Shown in pieces: positions 26,033-55,418 of a DNA stretch of 64,000 bases; position 1 is the stretch's first letter, and each line of letters begins with the position of its first letter. Source of the stretch: a virus; the IMG/VR virus record IMGVR_UViG_2687453351_000002, positions 2,312-66,311 of that record; one strand, written 5' to 3'. A model generated the notes under the pieces. That model was not told the origin of the DNA, did no database searches, and saw only the letters and a program-made list of their open reading frames with translations. The translations under genes were made by a program, and so were the position numbers.

Positions 26033-26256
26033 CGCTCGATTTTTCGCCCAGACTGATGCCTGCCGGGCAGGCGGCGCATTATCTTGGCATTTCAGCTTCG
26101 AAACTGCGCATGCTTCCAATTGCATCGAAGCGGCTTGATGGGAAACGGGTGTGGGACCGGCGCGATCTCGACGCTTATGCTGACGACCTGCCGACACACG
26201 GAGAAACGGACCAAGGCAACACATGCGACGCGCTGTTCATGGAAAAGGCATCCTGA
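26029..26256 (+). CDS. xis: Excisionase-like HTH protein
   Basis: AAHYLGISASKLR...RVWDRRDLDAY; immediately before integrase. Confidence 0.75.
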   Translation: MTLDFSPRLMPAGQAAHYLGISASKLRMLPIASKRLDGKRVWDRRDLDAYADDLPTHGETDQGNTCDALFMEKAS

Positions 26257-27332
26257 AGCACCTTAACGCCTCGGGGCGATGGCCCAGCGGGAATGTCCGC
26301 TATTATTACCGCCCCAAGGGTCAGAAAGGCGTTCCGCTGCCGGATCTGCCGCCGTCCCATCCGGATTTTCTTTCCGCCTATGCCCGTGCTGCCGGTCTTT
26401 CCGTGGCGCCTCTGCACTCCCCTCGCACGGGCTCGATCTCCGCGGGGATCGCAGATTACCTCAAGTCCGACGCATTCTTGTCCTTGTCTGCCGGTACGCG
26501 CACGCGGAGGCGGATCATGCTGGATGATATTCGAGGTCGCTATAGCACGGGGTTGGTACGCGATCTGCGCCCCCACCATATCCGCGCGGATCTTGAAGGC
26601 CGACCACCGCACCCTGCCAACAACCGCCTGAAATGCTGGCGCGGCCTGTGTCGCTGGTGGCAAGAAGCCGGGCTGGCCGAAGAAGATGCAGCAAGTCCGG
26701 TCCGCGCGCGTCGCGTATTACCGACTGAAGGCCACCTGCCATGGTCGCGCGACGACATCGCAAAATTCCGCGCCAGATGGCCGCACGCAACATCACAACG
26801 CCTGGCGTTCGAGTTACTGTTCTGGACAGGCGCGCGCATGTCGGATGCGGTGCGGCTAGGGCCGGGCATGGTCGACGCCGATGGCTGGCTGAGCTATCGG
26901 CAGTCGAAGACAGGCGGGCAGGTTGACGTTCCCTTTACCGCCGCAGCTCCAGAATGGGCCGAGCCATCTGATCGCGTCCATCTTTTTTCTGCCCTCAGGG
27001 AACAGGCCGACCGCCATGCGGTCTGGATGGTCACCGCCCAAGGCCGCCCCAGGTCAATCAAGGCGGCCAGCCAGTGGTTTTCCGCAGCGGCGCGCGCCGC
27101 TGGCATAACCGGGGGACGGTCGGCCCACGGACTGCGAAAGACCCGCGCCCAGATCATGGCCGAACGCGGCGCCACACCCGACCAGCGCGCCGCATGGCTG
27201 GGGCACGAGTCGCTGTCAGAGGTTCAGCACTATAGCCGCGGCGCTGATCGCCGACGAATGCTGGCGGGAATAGACCCCGAACCTAAAAGTTCCAACTCGT
27301 CGGATCGAGTTCCAACTTGGATGCGCAAGTAG
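26223..27332 (+). CDS. int: Tyrosine integrase
   Basis: Catalytic set TGARMSD, SKTG, AHGLRK, WLGH, QHYSR intact. Confidence 0.95.
   Translation: MRRAVHGKGILKHLNASGRWPSGNVRYYYRPKGQKGVPLPDLPPSHPDFLSAYARAAGLSVAPLHSPRTGSISAGIADYLKSDAFLSLSAGTRTRRRIMLDDIRGRYSTGLVRDLRPHHIRADLEGRPPHPANNRLKCWRGLCRWWQEAGLAEEDAASPVRARRVLPTEGHLPWSRDDIAKFRARWPHATSQRLAFELLFWTGARMSDAVRLGPGMVDADGWLSYRQSKTGGQVDVPFTAAAPEWAEPSDRVHLFSALREQADRHAVWMVTAQGRPRSIKAASQWFSAAARAAGITGGRSAHGLRKTRAQIMAERGATPDQRAAWLGHESLSEVQHYSRGADRRRMLAGIDPEPKSSNSSDRVPTWMRK
27288..27317 (+). repeat. AGTTCCAACT direct repeat; candidate integrase arm sites
   Basis: Copies at 27288-97 and 27308-17, adjacent to att core. Confidence 0.5.
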
Positions 27333-27359: not shown

Positions 27360-27409
27360 TGGTGACCCCGGCAGGACTCGAACCTGCAACCTATCCCTTA
27401 GGAGGGGAT
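27360..27409 (-). other. att core: 3' half of tRNA-Arg(CCT)
   Basis: Minus strand ATCCC-CTCCTAA-GGGAT anticodon arm, GCAGG-TTCGAGT-CCTGC T arm, ...GTCACCA; no D arm upstream. Confidence 0.9.
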
Positions 27410-27941
27410 AGGTTCCGGGGCAAAATAAGCAAAACTCGACAAAACAAGCACTCCCTATGCAAGCGTGTTCCCGGTTTGTGCAGCGAAATCCGGCTTGCGC
27501 AGGTTCAGCGAACCAAAGAGCACTCCCCAAATCACAAGGGATCCATGGCTAATGACGCCCCCCCCCACCAGCTGCCATCGGGTCCGCACTGATGACGGTC
27601 TCGAGGTCCTGATCCCGATGTGCTGCGTATCCACAATAGGCGATCCGGGCGCCTGCGCCTTTGGAGCGCCAGAAAGCCGAATCCAGGCGGCCAGACCTAG
27701 GAGGCTGAGCGGCAGGTCAGGCGCGGTTCGGGGCGCCGGGAATCTCTCCATTACGGCTTCTGCGGAAGATCTCGACACATGATCTTGCTAGGGCTCAGCC
27801 TTGTCGCCTCATCAGCCGCGCCACTCTGCCTCTCGGCATGATGCCGCCAATGACGATGCGTCCTCGAACGCAGACGGCAGCGTGGGATTGCCAGCAGAGG
27901 ACCTACCTCACTACCTTGGCGGGAATTCGAGAGGGTATTTC

Positions 27942-28490
27942 ATGAGTGGCTTCTTTCGTCAGGACGCCCGCATGGGCCGGAGTCCCACGGCGCTGGGGCA
28001 GGACGTTCTGGTGCTGCGCCGGTTTGAAGGCACCGGCCATCTGAACGCGCTGTTCGACTGTTCCGCCGATTGTCTGGCCGCCCCGACCGCTGTCGATTTC
28101 GACCGGCTGATTGGCACCCACGCCACCATTACCCCCACCACCCGCGAGGGAGAGCGGCCCTTCGATGGCATCGTCACCGAGGCCCGCTGGCTGGGCTCCG
28201 GCGATAATGGCCATCGCTACTGGCTGCGTCCTTGGGCTTTCCTTGCGAGCCTCCGCCGTAACCAGCTGATCTTCAGCAACAAGACCGTGATCGAGATCCT
28301 GACCGAGCTGCTGTCGGCCTCTGCCCATGCGGGCGCGCCGCGGACGAACGCGGCCAGGACCACCGCTTCGAGGCCGAGGGCGATATCGCGACGCTCGGGG
28401 CGGGCAGCCGGGTGGTGCCGGAGGGCAATCCGGTGCCGGGAACCGGCGGCGAGGACCCGTGCCTCAGCGCGCGGCATTCCGACCCGGCCG
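27942..28490 (+). pseudogene. vgrG: VgrG (T6SS spike) remnant with internal deletions and frameshift
   Basis: MSGFFRQDARMG..TALGQDVLVLRRFEG..FDGIVTEARWLG..LRPW..RNQLIFSNKTVIEIL, then second frame ADERGQDHRFEAEGD..CLSARH. Confidence 0.8.
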
Positions 28491-28520
28491 CCAATTCCCG
28501 CTTAAAGACGAAGTATAATC

Positions 28521-29453
28521 ATGGCCGGTGTAACGATAAGTCAGTTTTTGTCATCCAAAGACTCTCCCGCATGGCTTGTTCTGGATGGGGTGAATTGCCC
28601 CGATCTCCCGCACTTTCTTGAGGGAACCGAGCACTGCTGCTTTTATCGCGAAACGGGTCAGAAGCAGCCCCTCCATGCCCCGTGGATGATCCACATGGAT
28701 GACAGAATCTCCGAGATGGCGTCTTTCCTGCCAAACGATACGCATTGGGGATTCATCTTCACATCTCACTGGCCAATGCGAGATTTGCGCGCACATTTTC
28801 GACGCTACACGATGCTGAAGACTCCGCAGAATGAGGTTCCGGTTTATTTCCGTTTCTATGATCCTCGTGTGTTGTTCGATCTTGGTTATGCGCTTGAGGC
28901 AGATAAACTCCGGATGTTTATGCGCCCGTTCGGCAGGCTTGCAATTCCGTTGTCACCTCTTCTCGGTGAAAGATGCGGGCTCTCGCCCTTGGCCCATCAT
29001 GATGCTTTCCGGTCAAAATTTTTGACGCTCCCTATCCCGCCAGAAGAGCCGCCAGGAAAGGGTTCTCAGAGCTTTCAGATCGGAATGGTTGAGTATCGGC
29101 GCTTTGAGAATCTGCAAGCCAGAAGAGCCGAACGAAAACTGGCGCGTGAGTTGCATTTCACTGCCAGACACAGGTCAGACGCCGAAGTTCTTGACATCGC
29201 AGCGGAGGCTACTTCGCGCGCCGAAAGATATGGTCTGACATCCGTGCGTCAAATTAGGTTGTTCGCGAAATGCATGCTGAAATTCGGCCCCACTTTCGAC
29301 GAAACTCATCCGGGAGCGCGAGAGGTTTTGACGCGAAGGCGAGTCTCGGTTCGTGAAACATTTATCGCTTTGCAAAACTGGTACACGACTGCAGGCGACA
29401 AGCCATTTCCCGCAGGCGCCTCCCAGGACTTGGATATTTGGAATCGATTGTAA
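28521..29453 (+). CDS. DUF4123 T6SS effector adaptor
   Basis: WLVLDG, APW, WGFIFTS, LRAHFRR, VYFRFYDPRVL motifs. Confidence 0.88.
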   Translation: MAGVTISQFLSSKDSPAWLVLDGVNCPDLPHFLEGTEHCCFYRETGQKQPLHAPWMIHMDDRISEMASFLPNDTHWGFIFTSHWPMRDLRAHFRRYTMLKTPQNEVPVYFRFYDPRVLFDLGYALEADKLRMFMRPFGRLAIPLSPLLGERCGLSPLAHHDAFRSKFLTLPIPPEEPPGKGSQSFQIGMVEYRRFENLQARRAERKLARELHFTARHRSDAEVLDIAAEATSRAERYGLTSVRQIRLFAKCMLKFGPTFDETHPGAREVLTRRRVSVRETFIALQNWYTTAGDKPFPAGASQDLDIWNRL

Positions 29454-29467
29454 GGAGTGCGCGTTTC

Positions 29468-31117
29468 ATGAAATATTATGTTCCGACAATAGATGATATT
29501 GAAGCGTTGGTCGGTGCGCATCCTGGTAAATTCTCTTCCCCCCTGCAAACCATGCGGTCGATTGCCAATGCCCGTGCCCAGGGCGAAACGGTCAGCCAAA
29601 TTACGGCGCAAAATCAGTATCAGGATTATCTGTCCAACGGCGGCGAGCCGATGAATTCGGATGGCGCCATTCCGCCAGCTGAAGCGGTGCACGATCAGCC
29701 CCAAGGCAAAGCGGGATGCGATTGTGCGGCGGCTATGCCTTGCTGCGTGAACTCGATAACGCTTGGCTGTTCGCATCGCGACGCGCGCCTCACCCTACCT
29801 CAGGAGGAAAAGGCGAATGGGCAAACGAATTGTAAGCTCGTGCTTGTTGCAGACCAAGGTGGCTCCTCTGGATACGATCTATTGAAGGTGACACTCGACA
29901 GGACGCCCCATGGCGACTGCATCATGCCAAAGCAGATGCCGAAATCCCTGATCAAAATGGAAGGTGGTGAGACCGAAGAGAAGACCGCAGAAGACTATGA
30001 AATCAAGCTTACCTACCCCGGAGATACAGATCTGGGCCAGACGGACATTGAAAGATTTGTCAACGCCACGAAGTACACGCTATTGGGGGATCTGGAGAAG
30101 ATTGGAACAAACTATTCACTGAAGCTCGACACCTGCAGTGGCGAGACAACGTTCAACAGTGTGCTTCAAGTTTATCCCAGACTCGAGTGGACGGCTGCAA
30201 GTTTTGGATACGAGATCAAAGGCACCTACTACACGGACTTTACCTTTGTTCCCAGCGTTGCCCTGACAGGAAAACTCGACGGTACCTTCGGGGCAACGAC
30301 CTTTTCCATCGAGGGTGAGGGAGAGAGCAAAACCGATCCGGAAAACCATTCCCGATCCCTCGTTCCGTTTCTCGACAAAACGCTCTCCAAACTTCAAGGC
30401 TTGACTGGTGAGGGGGCGAGAACCAGCGAAAATTCCACACATTCTTCGATCTCCGTGTTCCACAAGGTCGATCTTGGAACCAGCAAATTCAAACTGGTCG
30501 AGCATCCCTCCGATCCGGCTGCGGTTGGAATCGACGCGAATGTCACAATGGGATTTGCTCCTCTCATCGGTATTGAAGCCAAGCTCGATATTATTGATGC
30601 ACTTTTGACAGCAGCCAACGGCGTGGCTCCCGGATTTGCTGAAGCTCTTCGCAAAGCGCGAGAGGTGATGGCAAAAGGTATCGGAGAAAGGGACAGCAAC
30701 GCTCACCTTTCTGCACATGCGGCTGTCACCTTAACTATCACTGGCACTCTGGGAGATGCCAACGTGGTTATATCCCGCAAAGTCAATGAAACGAGATGGT
30801 CGGGCAAGGGAGAGGTGTCTGGATCTCTCGAGATTTCGATCGCTGCTATCGTGAAGGCGGAAGGGAAAGCCTATATTGTGGAGAGTACCTTTTCCGCATC
30901 AGGACGCGCAAGATCAAAGCTCACAGCGGCACTGCAAACAATAAATTCACCACAGAGCGATAAGAAGTTGAATGCAAAAGTTGGATGGAATGGAATTAAG
31001 GTTAATGTTGCTGCTGAGGCGAAGGTTCGTGGCTTCGGAATCGTAAATATGAGCACACAGGGGAAAAAGGAAGTCCCGATACGAAAAGAAGAGGTGTTCT
31101 ACGATGCGGATTTTTAA
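29468..31117 (+). CDS. Putative T6SS effector of unknown activity
   Basis: AAGGAG RBS; directly downstream of DUF4123; AT-rich; no recognisable catalytic motif. Confidence 0.65.
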   Translation: MKYYVPTIDDIEALVGAHPGKFSSPLQTMRSIANARAQGETVSQITAQNQYQDYLSNGGEPMNSDGAIPPAEAVHDQPQGKAGCDCAAAMPCCVNSITLGCSHRDARLTLPQEEKANGQTNCKLVLVADQGGSSGYDLLKVTLDRTPHGDCIMPKQMPKSLIKMEGGETEEKTAEDYEIKLTYPGDTDLGQTDIERFVNATKYTLLGDLEKIGTNYSLKLDTCSGETTFNSVLQVYPRLEWTAASFGYEIKGTYYTDFTFVPSVALTGKLDGTFGATTFSIEGEGESKTDPENHSRSLVPFLDKTLSKLQGLTGEGARTSENSTHSSISVFHKVDLGTSKFKLVEHPSDPAAVGIDANVTMGFAPLIGIEAKLDIIDALLTAANGVAPGFAEALRKAREVMAKGIGERDSNAHLSAHAAVTLTITGTLGDANVVISRKVNETRWSGKGEVSGSLEISIAAIVKAEGKAYIVESTFSASGRARSKLTAALQTINSPQSDKKLNAKVGWNGIKVNVAAEAKVRGFGIVNMSTQGKKEVPIRKEEVFYDADF

Positions 31118-32036
31118 ACTGGTTTTGACGATAAGCTTGATGATGTCAGGGAGCACAATGATGGCAAATGAACTCGCCCCTTCGGAGACAGCTCTTGGGA
31201 TTGATCTGAATCTGAGCGCCGCCATGCTCGATTTCAGGGTGAATGATGTCCCGATCTTGGATCCGCAGACTCCTCTGAGTACCGACGCTCAGATCACGAC
31301 GCAGCTGACATTGAATGAGGCCTTCACTAAAGGTCAAAATACCATATCTTTCTCTTTGAAATTCAAGCCGAACTCAGAGTGGACGCCAAGTCTTCATCTT
31401 CGGCTGCATTCCTGGCCAGCCGGAACCTTGCCCGAGCTGTTTCAGGGATCGGATTTTGTGTTCGATGTAACCGTAGCTGCTTCGCAGAATGATCCGGACA
31501 AGGTCGAGATTACCCAAATGACAGGCACGGGGCAGCCCACGGCCACAATCTCCAATATACACCAGACGGCTGGCGACGGCACAACCGATAGCTGGAACAC
31601 GTGGACGGTGACAGCAAACGTGATGATCAACTTCCCGCAGGACGCATGGCAGTCCGCGCAGTTTCTTGAGCTCACGCCCGAACTTCGAAGAGAACTTTCT
31701 GGCGAATATATGAAGGTACACTCCGCCCTTTCACAAGGAGAGCGCGCCGCCAAAATGGCTCTGGCCCCCTATATCCATCGTCTTGCTGGGGGCATTGGTG
31801 CCAGCGACGAGGAATATTATGCCTCCGGGTATGAGGCGTTGCTTTCCGGGGAAGCCGGGTTCACGCTCCGTCCGTTCGATGCCGATGAAAGCATCGTGCA
31901 ACTCTATGGTCACGGCCGCCTTGCTGCTCTGTTGCCTCTTCCAATCCGGTATTGGAATCCCGAAGCCGAGCAAGAAGCAAGCCTGTTCCTCTATTTCTGG
32001 AAGGACCAGACGGGGCAGTGGCAAATCATTCATTGA
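31104..32036 (+). CDS. Putative periplasmic immunity protein
   Basis: Overlaps effector stop; signal-peptide-like MRIFKLVLTISLMMSGSTMMA. Confidence 0.65.
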   Translation: MRIFKLVLTISLMMSGSTMMANELAPSETALGIDLNLSAAMLDFRVNDVPILDPQTPLSTDAQITTQLTLNEAFTKGQNTISFSLKFKPNSEWTPSLHLRLHSWPAGTLPELFQGSDFVFDVTVAASQNDPDKVEITQMTGTGQPTATISNIHQTAGDGTTDSWNTWTVTANVMINFPQDAWQSAQFLELTPELRRELSGEYMKVHSALSQGERAAKMALAPYIHRLAGGIGASDEEYYASGYEALLSGEAGFTLRPFDADESIVQLYGHGRLAALLPLPIRYWNPEAEQEASLFLYFWKDQTGQWQIIH

Positions 32037-32136
32037 AGGCCTTGTGCTCGTTTTGATCAGGGACGCAATGTGATTGATCGCTCACGCAGCTTTCCTGTAC
32101 CGCCATTTGGCGTTTCACAGACTGAGGTCATAAGGC

Positions 32137-32463
32137 TCAGTGTTTTCTTCTGACCGCCTCGCCGATCCGCCGCCCGATCTCGCCGGGCGAGGGCGCGATC
32201 CATCCGATCAGCGCGACCAGCACGATCCAGGGCGGGATGACATTGACGATGACGGTGTCGACGCGGTCGGCGCGGAGGCGGTTCTCGGATTGCTCCTGGC
32301 GGATCTCGCGGGCGCGCGGCCGAACGATGGACGGCGCGTTCTCGACCTTCTGGCCTTGCACGTTCTCGGCCCCCGCCTGGATATTCGCGGCGACGTTTGG
32401 CCCAAGCGGAACCGGCAGCCCGCCGCATCCGGCCAGCAGCAGCGCCGCGAGGAGCGCCCTCAT
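32137..32463 (-). CDS. Lipoprotein with C-terminal TM helix; candidate unimolecular spanin
   Basis: Lipobox LAGC; C-terminal VIPPWIVLVALIGWIAP; follows endolysin. Confidence 0.6.
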   Translation of the reverse strand: MRALLAALLLAGCGGLPVPLGPNVAANIQAGAENVQGQKVENAPSIVRPRAREIRQEQSENRLRADRVDTVIVNVIPPWIVLVALIGWIAPSPGEIGRRIGEAVRRKH

Positions 32464-32969
32464 GCGCCGTCCCAGCGGAACGGCACCTCGGCCGGGATCC
32501 CGTCGAGCCCCTCATGGCAGAGCTGCCGGGCCTTGTTGCGGCGGATCAGGAGGCCGCGAACGCCCTTGCCCCCGGCGAAGCGCCAGCGCGGGAGCTCATT
32601 GCAGGCGCCGCGCAGATCGCCCGCATTGAGCTTCCGGATCAGGGTCGAGCGCGCGGCCGCGCCGAGGCCCACATTATAGGCCCAGTCGAGGATGCCCACA
32701 TAGCTCCGGTCCGGGATCCGGTCCTCGACGGGATCCGCGATCAGCCGGTCGAGCCCGGCCTCGAACCCAGCCAGGCGGTCGGCGAACATCGCCCGGCACT
32801 CGGCGGGGGTGTAGCTGTCGCCGAGATTGACGCCGCGCGTTTCGCCGAAACAGACGGTCGGCACGCCGACGATGTCGAGATAGGCCTCTGTCTTCAGGCC
32901 CTCATTGCCGCCGATGAAGCTGAGCGCGAGGGCGGTGGCGGCCGCGCCGCGCTTGAGGATCTTGCGCAT
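32460..32969 (-). CDS. Lysozyme-family (GH24) endolysin with SAR-like N-terminus
   Basis: EG..AYLDIVGVPTVCFGET catalytic E-D-T; K/R then Gly/Ala-rich hydrophobic N-terminus. Confidence 0.9.
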   Translation of the reverse strand: MRKILKRGAAATALALSFIGGNEGLKTEAYLDIVGVPTVCFGETRGVNLGDSYTPAECRAMFADRLAGFEAGLDRLIADPVEDRIPDRSYVGILDWAYNVGLGAAARSTLIRKLNAGDLRGACNELPRWRFAGGKGVRGLLIRRNKARQLCHEGLDGIPAEVPFRWDGA

Positions 32970-32973
32970 GGGC

Positions 32974-33186
32974 TCACTCCATCCTCTGGGCGATCAGGCG
33001 GGCGGCGAAGGCGGCCGCGGTGACCAGCGCCGACAGCCCGGCGAAGAGCCCGCGCGGGATCCCCAGCAGATCGGGCGAGGCGAGCGAGAGCCCGGCCTCA
33101 CAGCCCGAGAGCAGGCCCGCGAGCAGGATGAGACGGATCGACCAGGCGCGCCGGATCAGCGCGCGCCAGTGGGGCACGAGGTGCAT
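32974..33186 (-). CDS. Holin (two TM helices)
   Basis: 70 aa hydrophobic protein just before endolysin. Confidence 0.7.
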   Translation of the reverse strand: MHLVPHWRALIRRAWSIRLILLAGLLSGCEAGLSLASPDLLGIPRGLFAGLSALVTAAAFAARLIAQRME

Positions 33187-33210
33187 GGGGAAACTCCTGT
33201 GGCTGGGGGA

Positions 33211-33498
33211 TCAGCGCGGGACGCGCTGCAGGACGGTCTTGATGTCGGCGCGAAGCTCGCGCAGCAGCGCGTTGGTCTCCTCGCGGTCGCGCTGGCGGGC
33301 GGCGAGATCCTCGGCGCGCTGGCGCTGCCAGCGGGCCTCGAGGGCGCGGATCTCCTCGGCCAGCCGGGCGGTCTCGCGGTCGAGCGCGGCGGTATTGGTG
33401 CGGGCGCGCGCCTCGAGCCGTACCGACCAGACGGCCAGCCCGAGCAGCGAGAGCATCACCGCCCACCAGTCCCGGATCTGCGTGGTCAGTTCCTGCAT
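33211..33498 (-). CDS. Membrane-anchored coiled-coil lysis-cassette protein
   Basis: N-terminal TM WWAVMLSLLGLAVWSV, charged C-terminus. Confidence 0.6.
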   Translation of the reverse strand: MQELTTQIRDWWAVMLSLLGLAVWSVRLEARARTNTAALDRETARLAEEIRALEARWQRQRAEDLAARQRDREETNALLRELRADIKTVLQRVPR

Positions 33499-33611
33499 GG
33501 CGGGCTCCTTCCTGGGCGGGTCAGGTGTCGGCCGCGGGCGAGCAGCGGGACCGGGCGGCGCAGGGGCTGAGGGCGATGCCGATCATGGTCATGGGCCATC
33601 TCCGGGCATGG

Positions 33612-45307: not shown

Positions 45308-45490
45308 TTACGACATGGCGTTCAGGGGCGGCTCGGGCGCAAGCTCAAGCTCTTCGTCGGTCAGCTTTCGCCCCCTGGCGACGGCCATGGCGCAAAGCTC
45401 GTCCAGCTTGCCAAGCACTTCGTCGGGCATTCTGCGCGAAGACGGGAGATCTCCGAACCGCTTGTAGTATTCCCGGAACACATCATCCAT
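45308..45490 (-). CDS. Putative immunity protein for MuF toxin
   Basis: 60 aa MDDVFREYYKRFGDLPSS..., start overlaps MuF stop. Confidence 0.55.
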   Translation of the reverse strand: MDDVFREYYKRFGDLPSSRRMPDEVLGKLDELCAMAVARGRKLTDEELELAPEPPLNAMS

Positions 45491-47318
45491 CTTCGCCGCC
45501 TCCGATGATTTCCTCGAACCGCTGTGACATGCTGGGCCAGAGGTGCTTGAAAGTCTGGTAATCGGCAAGGGTCTCGCTCCCATAAGCCTCAAACCAGTTG
45601 GCGAATGCTTCCGCCAATTGAGAGCCGGTGAAGGTCCGCGCCCCGATCTTCTTTGCCGCGCCTATGTGACGATCATAGGCCAGCCTTGTCTTATAATACC
45701 CCTCTCCGTGGCCGAAAGCGATGCGGATCTTGCCCGCCGTTCCTGCTTCGAAAACGTCTTGCATCCCCGCCAGAGGGCTATCGTGCAGCACACGGCGCCC
45801 GAAGCGGCTCGGCAGATCATGGAGCAGTTGATAAACGTCCTTCCGGTTCCAAGCCGCGACAAACGCGATTGCATCCGTGGGCCGGATCTCATTGACCCCA
45901 TAAAGGGCCTTTACGCCATCCTCCCCCAGCGGGGTCATTTCGTCCAGGATGCGCTTGGCATCGGTCACATATCCGCCCGCGTCCGCCGCGAGGATGGCCC
46001 GCCGGAACTCCTGTTCCGCGGCGGCCTCGTTCTTCGCGATAGTCTTTCGCAGCGCGGTACTGCCCGCGCGGTCATTCCTGAACATTCCGCTGCGGGCTGT
46101 TTCCAGGGCCTTGTTATCCGCGGCCAGCTCGTCGACTGCGGCGAACGATGCAAACCCCCGCCCGTCGCCAAGGTTCCGGTCGATGTGGTGCCCGAACTCG
46201 TGCCGGAAAGTCCGCTTATAGGCCACCGTTCCCGGTGTATGCTTGCCCATGGACATGCGGCCTTCGTGGTCCATGTAGGCGCCCGGCTTTCCCTTCACCA
46301 TGCCCTTCAGGTCCGGGGTCTTCTGGATCACCCGCAGCGCCGGTTCCGGGGTGCCGTCAAATGCGTTGTGGCTGTTCGCCCGCGCGACAGGCATGGCCTG
46401 CATGGCTTGCGCGGCCGTCATCGGGCGCCCTTGAGCCGCTGCTTGCGCTGCCGCGCTGGTTTCCCCGCGCCGGGTGCGCGGCACAATCGGAACCCATGCG
46501 CACCGGCAATTCGGATGCACCGGGATAAGGCCCCGGGCCTTGTCCAGGGTATAGGGGCCGCCGCGGGCCAGCGCCTCGCATTGCGGACACACCGCATTGT
46601 CACCGGCCGTCGCGAACTCGGCCTCAATCGCTACCCCCGAGACCCCGGCTTCCTGGTAGGCGTTCAGGCTGGCGTCGGCATGCGCCCGAATGACCTCTGT
46701 CCGCGCCATCATGCGGGCGCGGGTGATCCCGATCTTGTGCACCCGGTCGGTCAGCGCCCGGCTGATCTCGCGCGGCCCGAGCCCCTGGCTCAGCCCCTCA
46801 GCCAGTGTGCGGCTGATCTGCTGATCCATCGCGTCGGTGATGCCGCGCAAGTCGCTGTAGGCGCGCGTGTAGGCCAACGCCACGCGGTCCACATGGAACG
46901 GACGGGTGAATGCCTTCTCTACCCATTCCGGCGCCACAGGCGCGCCCTGCGCCCGCATACGGGATGCCGCCTGCGCGATCCCCTTCTGGTAGGCGTTGCG
47001 CACGTAGAGAGACGCCCACGAACGGCTGCCCGCGCTGTCCAGGCGCTCGCCGCGGCGGACCTCCAAGATCCCCGCGTCTTGCTGCTGCTGCAGCCAGTCC
47101 ATGAAGGCCGCGACCTTCTGGTCCGAACGGGGCTGGTCGAAGCGGCCGCGGTTGGTCTTGAGCCCGAACCCGTCCTGCCTGTCCACTTCCTCCCGGATCT
47201 TGGCCGCGAGATTGCGGAACCGCCGGGCGGCGGCGGCTTCGAACTGGCGGCGCAGGGTTGTGGTGCGCGTCGGATCGTATCGGTGGGCGGCGTTGACCTT
47301 CAGGCAGGCCTCACACAT
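45483..47318 (-). CDS. MuF head morphogenesis protein with C-terminal metalloprotease-like toxin domain
   Basis: RARMMARTE, CPQC, IPVHPNCRC MuF core, then ~330 aa with HEFGH and AEAFANWF. Confidence 0.85.
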   Translation of the reverse strand: MCEACLKVNAAHRYDPTRTTTLRRQFEAAAARRFRNLAAKIREEVDRQDGFGLKTNRGRFDQPRSDQKVAAFMDWLQQQQDAGILEVRRGERLDSAGSRSWASLYVRNAYQKGIAQAASRMRAQGAPVAPEWVEKAFTRPFHVDRVALAYTRAYSDLRGITDAMDQQISRTLAEGLSQGLGPREISRALTDRVHKIGITRARMMARTEVIRAHADASLNAYQEAGVSGVAIEAEFATAGDNAVCPQCEALARGGPYTLDKARGLIPVHPNCRCAWVPIVPRTRRGETSAAAQAAAQGRPMTAAQAMQAMPVARANSHNAFDGTPEPALRVIQKTPDLKGMVKGKPGAYMDHEGRMSMGKHTPGTVAYKRTFRHEFGHHIDRNLGDGRGFASFAAVDELAADNKALETARSGMFRNDRAGSTALRKTIAKNEAAAEQEFRRAILAADAGGYVTDAKRILDEMTPLGEDGVKALYGVNEIRPTDAIAFVAAWNRKDVYQLLHDLPSRFGRRVLHDSPLAGMQDVFEAGTAGKIRIAFGHGEGYYKTRLAYDRHIGAAKKIGARTFTGSQLAEAFANWFEAYGSETLADYQTFKHLWPSMSQRFEEIIGGGEDG

Positions 47319-54917: not shown

Positions 54918-55378
54918 GACGCGGCCCTTTCGATCCCGGCGGCGCCCGGCCCGGCCATGATTTCGCGGGCGAGATAGGCGAGCCCGTCCAGGCTGCACTC
55001 GACCCATTCCTCGGGTGGTGCTGCGTCCCCGTCGCCAAAGGCCGCGCGGATCGCGCCCAGCGGCAAGGCGCAGCGGATCGGCCGCCGGTCGAAGCGATAG
55101 ACCACCACGGGCAGTTGCCCGGCCTTCCGGGCACTGGCGGCCGCCTGCATCCGCCAGTCGTCAGCGCAGCCGGTCCCTGCGGATCGGCGCTTGCACTCGA
55201 TAGAGAACGGCCAGGCCGGATCGTCCGTCACCAGATCGCCCAAGCCGGAGTCCTGGCACTGGCGCAGGTTGCGGCGGAACGCGATGCCGGTCAGGTCGAA
55301 CAGGGCCGCGGCGACCTCGCGCTCGAGCTCGGCCCCCTTGGCGCGGTTGCGCCGGCCGATGGCGGATCGGTCCTTCAT
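54914..55378 (-). CDS. PD-(D/E)XK Holliday-junction-resolvase-like nuclease
   Basis: KGAELEREVA..GLGDL..SIECKR. Confidence 0.75.
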   Translation of the reverse strand: MKDRSAIGRRNRAKGAELEREVAAALFDLTGIAFRRNLRQCQDSGLGDLVTDDPAWPFSIECKRRSAGTGCADDWRMQAAASARKAGQLPVVVYRFDRRPIRCALPLGAIRAAFGDGDAAPPEEWVECSLDGLAYLAREIMAGPGAAGIERAAS

Positions 55379-55418
55379 CTGGACACCTCCTGTCTGAAAT
55401 GCTCGTGGCGGTGCAGGC

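Follow-up and report, generated by a model that had tools for sequence, protein, structure and literature searches.

Auxiliary clusters for type VI secretion systems (T6SS) were described on prophages of the Ralstonia solanacearum complex, for example on phiRSY1-like Myoviridae, on Siphoviridae and on Inoviridae, and sequenced phiRSY1-like virions are included in this report (PMC11481896). For Vibrio cholerae the element Aux3 is known in a prophage-like mobile form and in a truncated form, and its excision was shown experimentally (PMC7721734). The carriage of T6SS toxin sets by phages is already published as a principle. In this study, a stretch of 64,000 nucleotides (nt) of the chromosome of Rhodovulum sulfidophilum DSM 2351 was investigated. 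This whole stretch, called the window in the following, comprises positions 2,312 to 66,311 of the virus record IMGVR_UViG_2687453351_000002 (IMG/VR). It contains a cassette with genes for a DUF4123 adaptor, a predicted effector and a predicted immunity protein. With good probability this cassette is cargo of prophage 2, the second of two prophages in the window; that it is an active weapon is in our judgement as probable as the opposite.

A cluster with the order vgrG, DUF4123, effector and immunity gene is the type represented by Tap-1/TEC with TseL of V. cholerae. With the locus described here, phage-borne T6SS toxin sets would be extended from Ralstonia and Vibrio to marine Rhodobacteraceae. 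In this locus vgrG has become a pseudogene, the T6SS resides on a plasmid, the two prophages in tandem are armed with different cassettes, and the effector family is uncharacterised; these are its specific features.

Position of the cassette in prophage 2

An earlier note, made from the letters of the window alone, had described a vgrG remnant, a DUF4123 gene, an open reading frame (ORF) for 549 amino acids (aa) and an ORF with signal peptide, lying between a 3' fragment of a tRNA-Arg gene on the left and the lysis genes of prophage 2. All of these elements are present. The features needed for the following description are given here with their window coordinates.

27360-27409, minus strand: 3' fragment of tRNA-Arg(CCT), 50 nt, identical to the intact gene at 50 of 50 positions
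27410-27535, no strand assigned: attL arm of an int2-type element, recognised by nucleotide identity to arms in other Rhodobacteraceae
27561-27941, plus strand: conserved leader upstream of the vgrG remnant, moving together with the cassette
27942-28495, plus strand: vgrG pseudogene (ORF 27801-28505, ATG at 27942), found by blastx against the VgrG of Celeribacter, with partial matches to Pfam and TIGR03361
28521-29453, plus strand: DUF4123 adaptor (Tap/TEC-type chaperone), 310 aa, Pfam PF13503 with 60.9 bits at a cut-off of 25.8
29468-31117, plus strand: predicted effector, 549 aa, with conserved N-terminal and polymorphic C-terminal part
31104-32036, plus strand: predicted periplasmic immunity protein, 310 aa, with signal-like N-terminus and a 14-nt overlap with the effector stop
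65307-66432, window-equivalent positions in the finished genome (L004 12129-13254): int2 and, on the minus strand, intact tRNA-Arg(CCT)

The letters of the window are identical to the complete genome AP014800.1, the finished chromosome of DSM 2351 (window coordinate = record coordinate + 15722). Thus, the arrangement is not a misassembly. The virus record is a call of 68.6 kb which covers two prophages and stops at the tRNA. By scans with PHROG and Pfam profiles both prophages were identified as complete, mutually different and of siphovirus type, each with a full structural module, and they are arranged in tandem. The GC content is 66-75% across most of the window. At 29001-32000 it amounts to 0.50-0.54, compared with 0.66-0.75 in the flanks, so that the cassette is AT-rich as the earlier note had stated. 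For the genes of the cassette 51-53% GC was obtained, compared with 66-72% in their surroundings, and the vgrG remnant has a GC content of 67%.

The tRNA-Arg(CCT) fragment starts in the anticodon stem, on its 5' side, and extends through the anticodon CCT to the terminal CCA. It was recognised by the Rfam tRNA model with 28.6 bits, the D arm missing. No intact tRNA was detected with ARAGORN in the window or in the 68.6-kb record, and no second copy of the 50-nt tRNA core was found in the record by k-mer search. To the right of the window, the earlier note had expected a further integrase and the complete tRNA-Arg(CCT), and both were found there in the finished genome. The order in rightward direction is methylase, the tyrosine integrase int2 (347 aa), 5 nt, the intact tRNA-Arg(CCT) on the minus strand (L004 13178-13254) and host genes, of which the first encodes a LacI-family regulator. 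The element between the 50-nt direct repeats has a size of about 39 kb. The fragment at 27360-27409 is attR of prophage 1 and at the same time attL of prophage 2.

The arm of 125 nt at 27410-27535 shows 73-76% nucleotide identity to sequences beside tRNA-Arg fragments of four other Rhodobacteraceae (G211, G294, G207 and G385). These were obtained by a family-wide DNA search, in which most other matches were tRNA. For G211 and G385, the far end of the element, at a distance of 46 kb and 7.5 kb, respectively, carries a homologue of int2 (67% aa identity) and an intact tRNA-Arg(CCT). The arm co-occurs with int2-type integrases at tRNA-Arg(CCT) in other genomes, and therefore the cassette, which starts directly inside the attL arm, is part of the int2 element. 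No second att-like repeat was found in the interval from the immunity gene to the spanin gene. An att pair of its own, which the earlier note had named as a refutation, was not found for the cassette either; the sole repeat flanking it comprises 14 nt with 13 of 14 matching, which is of chance size.

As a further observation at this boundary, the arm yields CCGGGGCA within 27363-27422, pairing with the 3' acceptor strand of the tRNA fragment. Due to this pairing, the Rfam tRNA model aligns a mini-tRNA without D arm end to end with the 28.6 bits mentioned above. A pairing of this type is absent from G211 and may be a matter of chance.

Copies of the cassette were examined in other genomes. In two other strains of R. 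sulfidophilum, GCA_016757195 and GCA_016757055, the span 27561-32277 of the window is present with 97% identity, comprising the leader, the broken vgrG, the adaptor, effector and immunity genes and the start of the spanin gene. The left neighbours in these strains differ from those in the window and comprise MarR, FUSC and AaeA-type genes, after which a 53-nt piece from the 3' end of tRNA-Pro(CGG) is found. This fragment was identified by BLAST to tRNA-Pro(CGG) genes; Rfam gave no score. As no tRNA is called there, the 53-nt piece is regarded as an attL-type fragment. The same junction of cassette and spanin gene is thus found beside tRNA-Pro(CGG), and therefore the cassette moves with the end of the phage and not with the locus. 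Together with the int2-type arm, this junction supports the claim of the earlier note that the cassette came with the prophage 2 element.

In the tRNA-Pro strains, the gene upstream of MarR and FUSC shares its first about 26 codons with the PDDEXK_15 gene of prophage 2. The upstream DNA is shared, too, with 98% identity (L007 380-487 compared with window 55301-55408), as in a mosaic joint.

Rhodovulum sp. YEN HP10 contains the leader, the vgrG remnant, the adaptor and the N-terminal part of the effector with 96% identity. Spanin and truncated endolysin genes with 91% identity, another integrase and tRNA-Thr(GGT) follow, so that the junction of cassette and spanin gene is present at this tRNA as well, and the element carrying the cassette is decayed. 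For Celeribacter ethanolicus and C. naphthalenivorans a chromosomal form without phage genes was found, which looks ancestral. It consists of an intact vgrG, DUF4123, the effector, three immunity paralogues and PAAR. A scan of genome contigs gave loci from Celeribacter and Tateyamaria only.

The leader accompanies the cassette with 95-97% nucleotide identity, in L007, L008 and L009 from position 27561 and in L006 from 27663. For the vgrG remnant, Pfam Phage_GPD was detected with 65.8 bits, covering only positions 4-117 of the profile. Compared with the intact VgrG of C. ethanolicus (647 aa), codons 3-133 (27951-28334) are retained, and codons 278-331 follow in a different reading frame (28334-28495). 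The remainder, codons 134-277 and 332-647, has been deleted, and with it the gp5-like spike as well as the C-terminal tail. A T6SS auxiliary cluster has an intact vgrG upstream of the adaptor, which is missing here. Hence the cassette of the window derives from a cluster of this kind and is itself no longer intact. Both deletion junctions are spanned with equal lengths in the alignments to L006, L007 and L009, so these are the same deletions, and they are common to all copies in Rhodovulum. Therefore, the form with broken vgrG is the one that spread.

Adaptor, predicted effector and predicted immunity genes

The DUF4123 gene is located directly upstream of the effector gene, its stop 14 nt before the effector ATG. 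In addition to the Pfam family, a weak match to the NCBIfam chaperone Tla1 was obtained for the adaptor. The effector of 549 aa was assigned to no family in Pfam or NCBIfam. Its own family is small, with 8 matches in a set of 5.8 billion proteins and 84 matches in a further search. Since it is so small, the context of each effector is open to individual inspection.

The two parts of the effector differ in their relationships. The N-terminal part of about 390 aa tracks the lineage, with 94-99% identity among Rhodovulum and 86-88% to Celeribacter. The C-terminal part of about 155 aa occurs in three types (A, B and C) with 40-45% identity between them, and their distribution crosses lineages. The C-terminal type of the effector corresponds to that of the immunity gene next downstream in six of six loci; additional copies of the immunity family are orphan immunity genes. 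The ORFs of adaptor and effector are likewise intact in six of six loci.

The 310-aa protein encoded downstream of the effector has an N-terminal hydrophobic, signal-like segment, which is kept in its homologues. It is presumably the immunity protein for the effector. The envelope is the predicted target of the toxin, because the immunity protein would be secreted by means of its signal peptide. All immunity paralogues end in an invariant YFWKDQTGQWQIIH, and the DNA is conserved there, too (31974-32037; L005, L006 and L009). Conserved both as protein and as DNA, this YFWKDQTGQWQIIH tail is likely the crossover point at which toxin and immunity types are swapped.

An AlphaFold model of the effector was obtained with a mean predicted local distance difference test (pLDDT) value of 79. 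In this model a short helical N-terminus precedes a beta-sandwich region, and long beta-hairpins make up the C-terminal half. A comparison with AFDB clusters yielded uncharacterised proteins, a few of them labelled as PAAR-like or T6SS. From Pfam, NCBIfam, Foldseek against the PDB, ESM Atlas and AFDB clusters no named function was obtained. As a guess of low confidence, the C-terminal half with its many beta strands might insert into a membrane.

Host T6SS

For the delivery of the effector, the earlier note had presumed a T6SS of the host, and its core genes were located on Plasmid1 of DSM 2351 (AP014801.1). Genes for VgrG, PAAR, FHA, TssA, TssB, TssC, Hcp, TssE, TssF, TssG and ClpV were identified, and those for TssK, TssL and TssM elsewhere on this plasmid. 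One more VgrG and a PAAR are encoded on Plasmid2. The VgrG of Plasmid1 (NHU_04375) is 75% identical to the VgrG of the Celeribacter cassette over the full length, and the C-terminal tail is well conserved. From this similarity we infer that the Plasmid1 VgrG may be the carrier of the effector. Furthermore, a gene for a hypothetical protein of 3511 aa adjoins tssK, tssL and tssM (L054 8644-19179; AP014801.1 100643-111178).

Lysis module and cargo of the prophages

The remaining features of the two prophages are listed below.

26223-27332, plus strand: int1, integrase of prophage 1, 369 aa, Pfam Phage_integrase with 65.8 bits, ending 28 nt before the tRNA fragment
32137-32463, minus strand: spanin of prophage 2, NCBIfam NF037952 with 101 bits at a cut-off of 80
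32460-32969, minus strand: endolysin, Pfam Phage_lysozyme with 115.7 bits
32974-33186, minus strand: DUF7940 holin-like gene, Pfam DUF7940 with 57.4 bits
33187-64000, no strand assigned: body of prophage 2 (PHROGs) with tail fibre, tape measure, capsid, MuF, portal, TerL, S24 repressor, Erf, exonuclease and DNA methylase

The structural and replication genes of prophage 1 are situated at 2-21681. Its content comprises a J-like tail fibre, tape measure, HK97-type capsid, protease, portal, TerL, primase and int1. The MuF-type head protein of prophage 2 (45483-47318) is long with 611 aa, and the PHROG match covers only its first about 300 aa.

Prophages 1 and 2 share a lysis module with 95% nucleotide identity (window 32150-33508; L034 10908-12265), and the rest of the phages is different. 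The left end of prophage 1 is located outside the window (L034, AP014800.1; window = 9971 - L034 position). There, the spanin gene is followed by a cargo (L034 12599-20569) of SOUL, DUF2177 and GmrSD_C and then a DUF4123 set. In this set, the DUF4123 gene (326 aa) is accompanied by genes for a VasX_N effector of 981 aa and for a protein of 351 aa. The DUF4123 adaptors of prophages 1 and 2 are only 21% identical. Past this cargo, a near-copy of the tRNA-Arg 3' end with 19 nt lies beside an insertion sequence (IS), and tentatively it is regarded as attL of prophage 1. A third prophage (L035, AP014800.1 409238-430083) has the same tail and lysis genes with 95-97% nucleotide identity. Its position between spanin and att is filled with defence genes and not with a T6SS cassette as in the other two, GmrSD_C being followed by an IS110 element and by SIR2_2. 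Homology of the three lysis modules does not extend past 32150 at the spanin 3' end, which indicates that the segment between spanin and att is variable in this group of phages. Since different gene sets directly follow lysis modules of 95% identity, this segment represents a variable cargo slot.

In other strains the contig depth of the lysis module was about ten-fold above that of the cassette, which suggests many copies. Repeats of this module could drive rearrangements such as that in YEN HP10.

Discussion

According to the explanation which we favour, int2 would have inserted prophage 2, a temperate prophage of siphovirus type with about 39 kb, into tRNA-Arg(CCT) in tandem with prophage 1. 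The cassette occupies the variable segment between the spanin gene and the attL arm. Its probable origin is the capture of a chromosomal vgrG auxiliary cluster like the intact one of Celeribacter, and two deletions would have destroyed vgrG after this capture. In the lysogen, the DUF4123 adaptor would bind the conserved N-terminal part of the effector and load it onto a VgrG spike of the host. Most likely this would be the VgrG of the Plasmid1 T6SS, because its C-terminal tail resembles that of the original VgrG of the cassette. The T6SS would then fire the effector into neighbouring cells, while the signal-peptide protein may shield the lysogen and its kin in the periplasm. The cassette would presumably be packaged into virions. 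Several observations weigh against a functional weapon carried by an active phage, and they are discussed in the following together with the other explanations.

That the cassette moves with the phage but is no weapon is the strongest of these other explanations, although unlikely. Only the immunity protein would then matter, directed against type A effectors of neighbours, or the cassette would be neutral debris. As vgrG is a pseudogene, delivery hinges on a match with a VgrG of the host. No sigma-70-like promoter match was found on the plus strand of the cassette. Orphan immunity genes of the family pile up in Celeribacter and in strain L009. Furthermore, the cassette is kept in the dead remnant of YEN HP10, and hence it does not need a live phage. 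Against the favoured explanation it also counts that no match to the effector model was found in the PDB with Foldseek and that the likeness to outer-membrane beta-barrels, tested with VIA-align, has Z values of only 7-8, which is in the range of noise. Against debris or a mere immunity gene speak the intact ORFs of adaptor and effector in all six loci, the high identity of the effector N-terminus within Rhodovulum (94-99%) and the common swapping of toxin and immunity types. The host possesses a T6SS and a VgrG with matching tail. Contigs of one RNA library cover portions of the cassette; they give weak evidence and no proof of transcription, and carry-over of DNA may be their source. For the cassette as an active weapon, the chances are seen as balanced.

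Somewhat less probable still is that the cassette represents the remnant of an older island or of a resident vgrG auxiliary cluster at tRNA-Arg, beside which the phages integrated, so that it would not be packaged. In favour of this explanation are Rhodovulum sp. MB263 and YEN HP10. At the left edge of the tRNA-Arg locus of both, a scrap of leader and vgrG adjoins host genes, Nramp and a gene for 91 aa, without attL. The scrap (L050 8790-9019; L051 1134-1363) is a leader piece of 20 nt fused to vgrG codons of about 62-135 with an in-frame stop, and its vgrG is 82% identical. It could be an older resident element. At tRNA-Arg(CCT), these scraps form the left border of int2 elements which have decayed, and they lie among other debris of a prophage-2-like element. 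In our reading they are what erosion has left of the left end of such a related element. Exact look-ups with TssB and LacI gave no further tRNA-Arg sites of R. sulfidophilum. No tRNA-Arg(CCT) site of this species was found to be truly empty; only the decayed elements of MB263 and YEN HP10 were observed.

The decay of vgrG and the GC content of the cassette, which is unlike that of the phage, would also fit an older island. The same applies to the lack of a free phage genome carrying the cassette. A scan of IMG/VR contigs with the adaptor yielded no related cassette, and the adaptor gave no match in deposited phage genomes (tblastn, INPHARED). By megablast against deposited phages, only the terminase of prophage 2 was matched and no close relative was found. 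However, the tRNA fragment and the int2-type arm are located to the left of the cassette and not between cassette and phage. An att-like repeat between the immunity and spanin genes was not found, and the same junction of cassette and spanin gene occurs at tRNA-Pro(CGG) in other strains. A cassette belonging to prophage 2 is preferred with good confidence to a resident island.

Finally, an artefact of assembly or provirus calling which joined two phages and a chromosomal island, as the 68.6-kb virus call over two prophages up to the tRNA might suggest, is practically negligible, since the order is base-for-base identical in the finished chromosome AP014800.1 and parts of it recur in independent assemblies and runs.

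A wider hypothesis goes beyond the cassette as cargo of prophage 2, and we regard it as speculative and rather doubtful. Siphophages of Rhodobacteraceae which share one lysis module would possess an exchangeable slot between spanin and att, filled with T6SS cassettes or with anti-phage defence. Lysogeny would re-arm a plasmid-borne T6SS, and the effector would found an uncharacterised family of envelope-targeting toxins with a beta-barrel-like, membrane-inserting domain. If this is true, the weapon is split over three replicons.

The locus offers a tractable system in a non-pathogenic host, because secretion machine (plasmid), toxin set (phage) and chromosome are on separate replicons. In addition, different stages are available side by side: the intact cluster of Celeribacter, the phage-borne copy with broken vgrG in DSM 2351 and the fixed remnant of YEN HP10. 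The results also draw attention to a family of effectors and immunity proteins which is uncharacterised and comprises three types that can be exchanged.

Compared with known systems, the clusters of Ralstonia are similar in that toxin and immunity genes linked to vgrG are carried by temperate phages with site-specific integration, the T6SS being encoded elsewhere. In contrast to Ralstonia, the host belongs to another branch of the phylum, the phages are different, vgrG is a pseudogene, and a DUF4123 adaptor, an uncharacterised effector and a T6SS on a plasmid are present. Moreover, two tandem prophages carry different cassettes in one slot. Virions of phiRSY1 were sequenced, whereas prophage 2 of DSM 2351 is known from the host genome sequence alone. 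Aux3 also represents a T6SS effector-immunity module in a prophage-like element flanked by att sites. Its long mobile and truncated fixed forms resemble the prophage of DSM 2351 and the remnant of YEN HP10, respectively. The effector of Aux3 is PAAR-linked and is not known to use a DUF4123 adaptor. Excision is experimental for Aux3, but predicted from sequence for the element described here.

Chromosomal orphan clusters are also comparable, such as the locus of C. ethanolicus (L005), with the same gene order, adaptor family and immunity family and an effector of 89% identity. The copy in the window has lost vgrG and is part of a prophage, whereas this locus encodes a complete VgrG together with three immunity paralogues and PAAR and is free of phage genes. 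Prophage moron regions with defence genes are comparable as well, as they are variable segments of low GC content between the last late gene and att. Unlike morons for defence or virulence, the cargo of prophage 2 is an offensive T6SS set.

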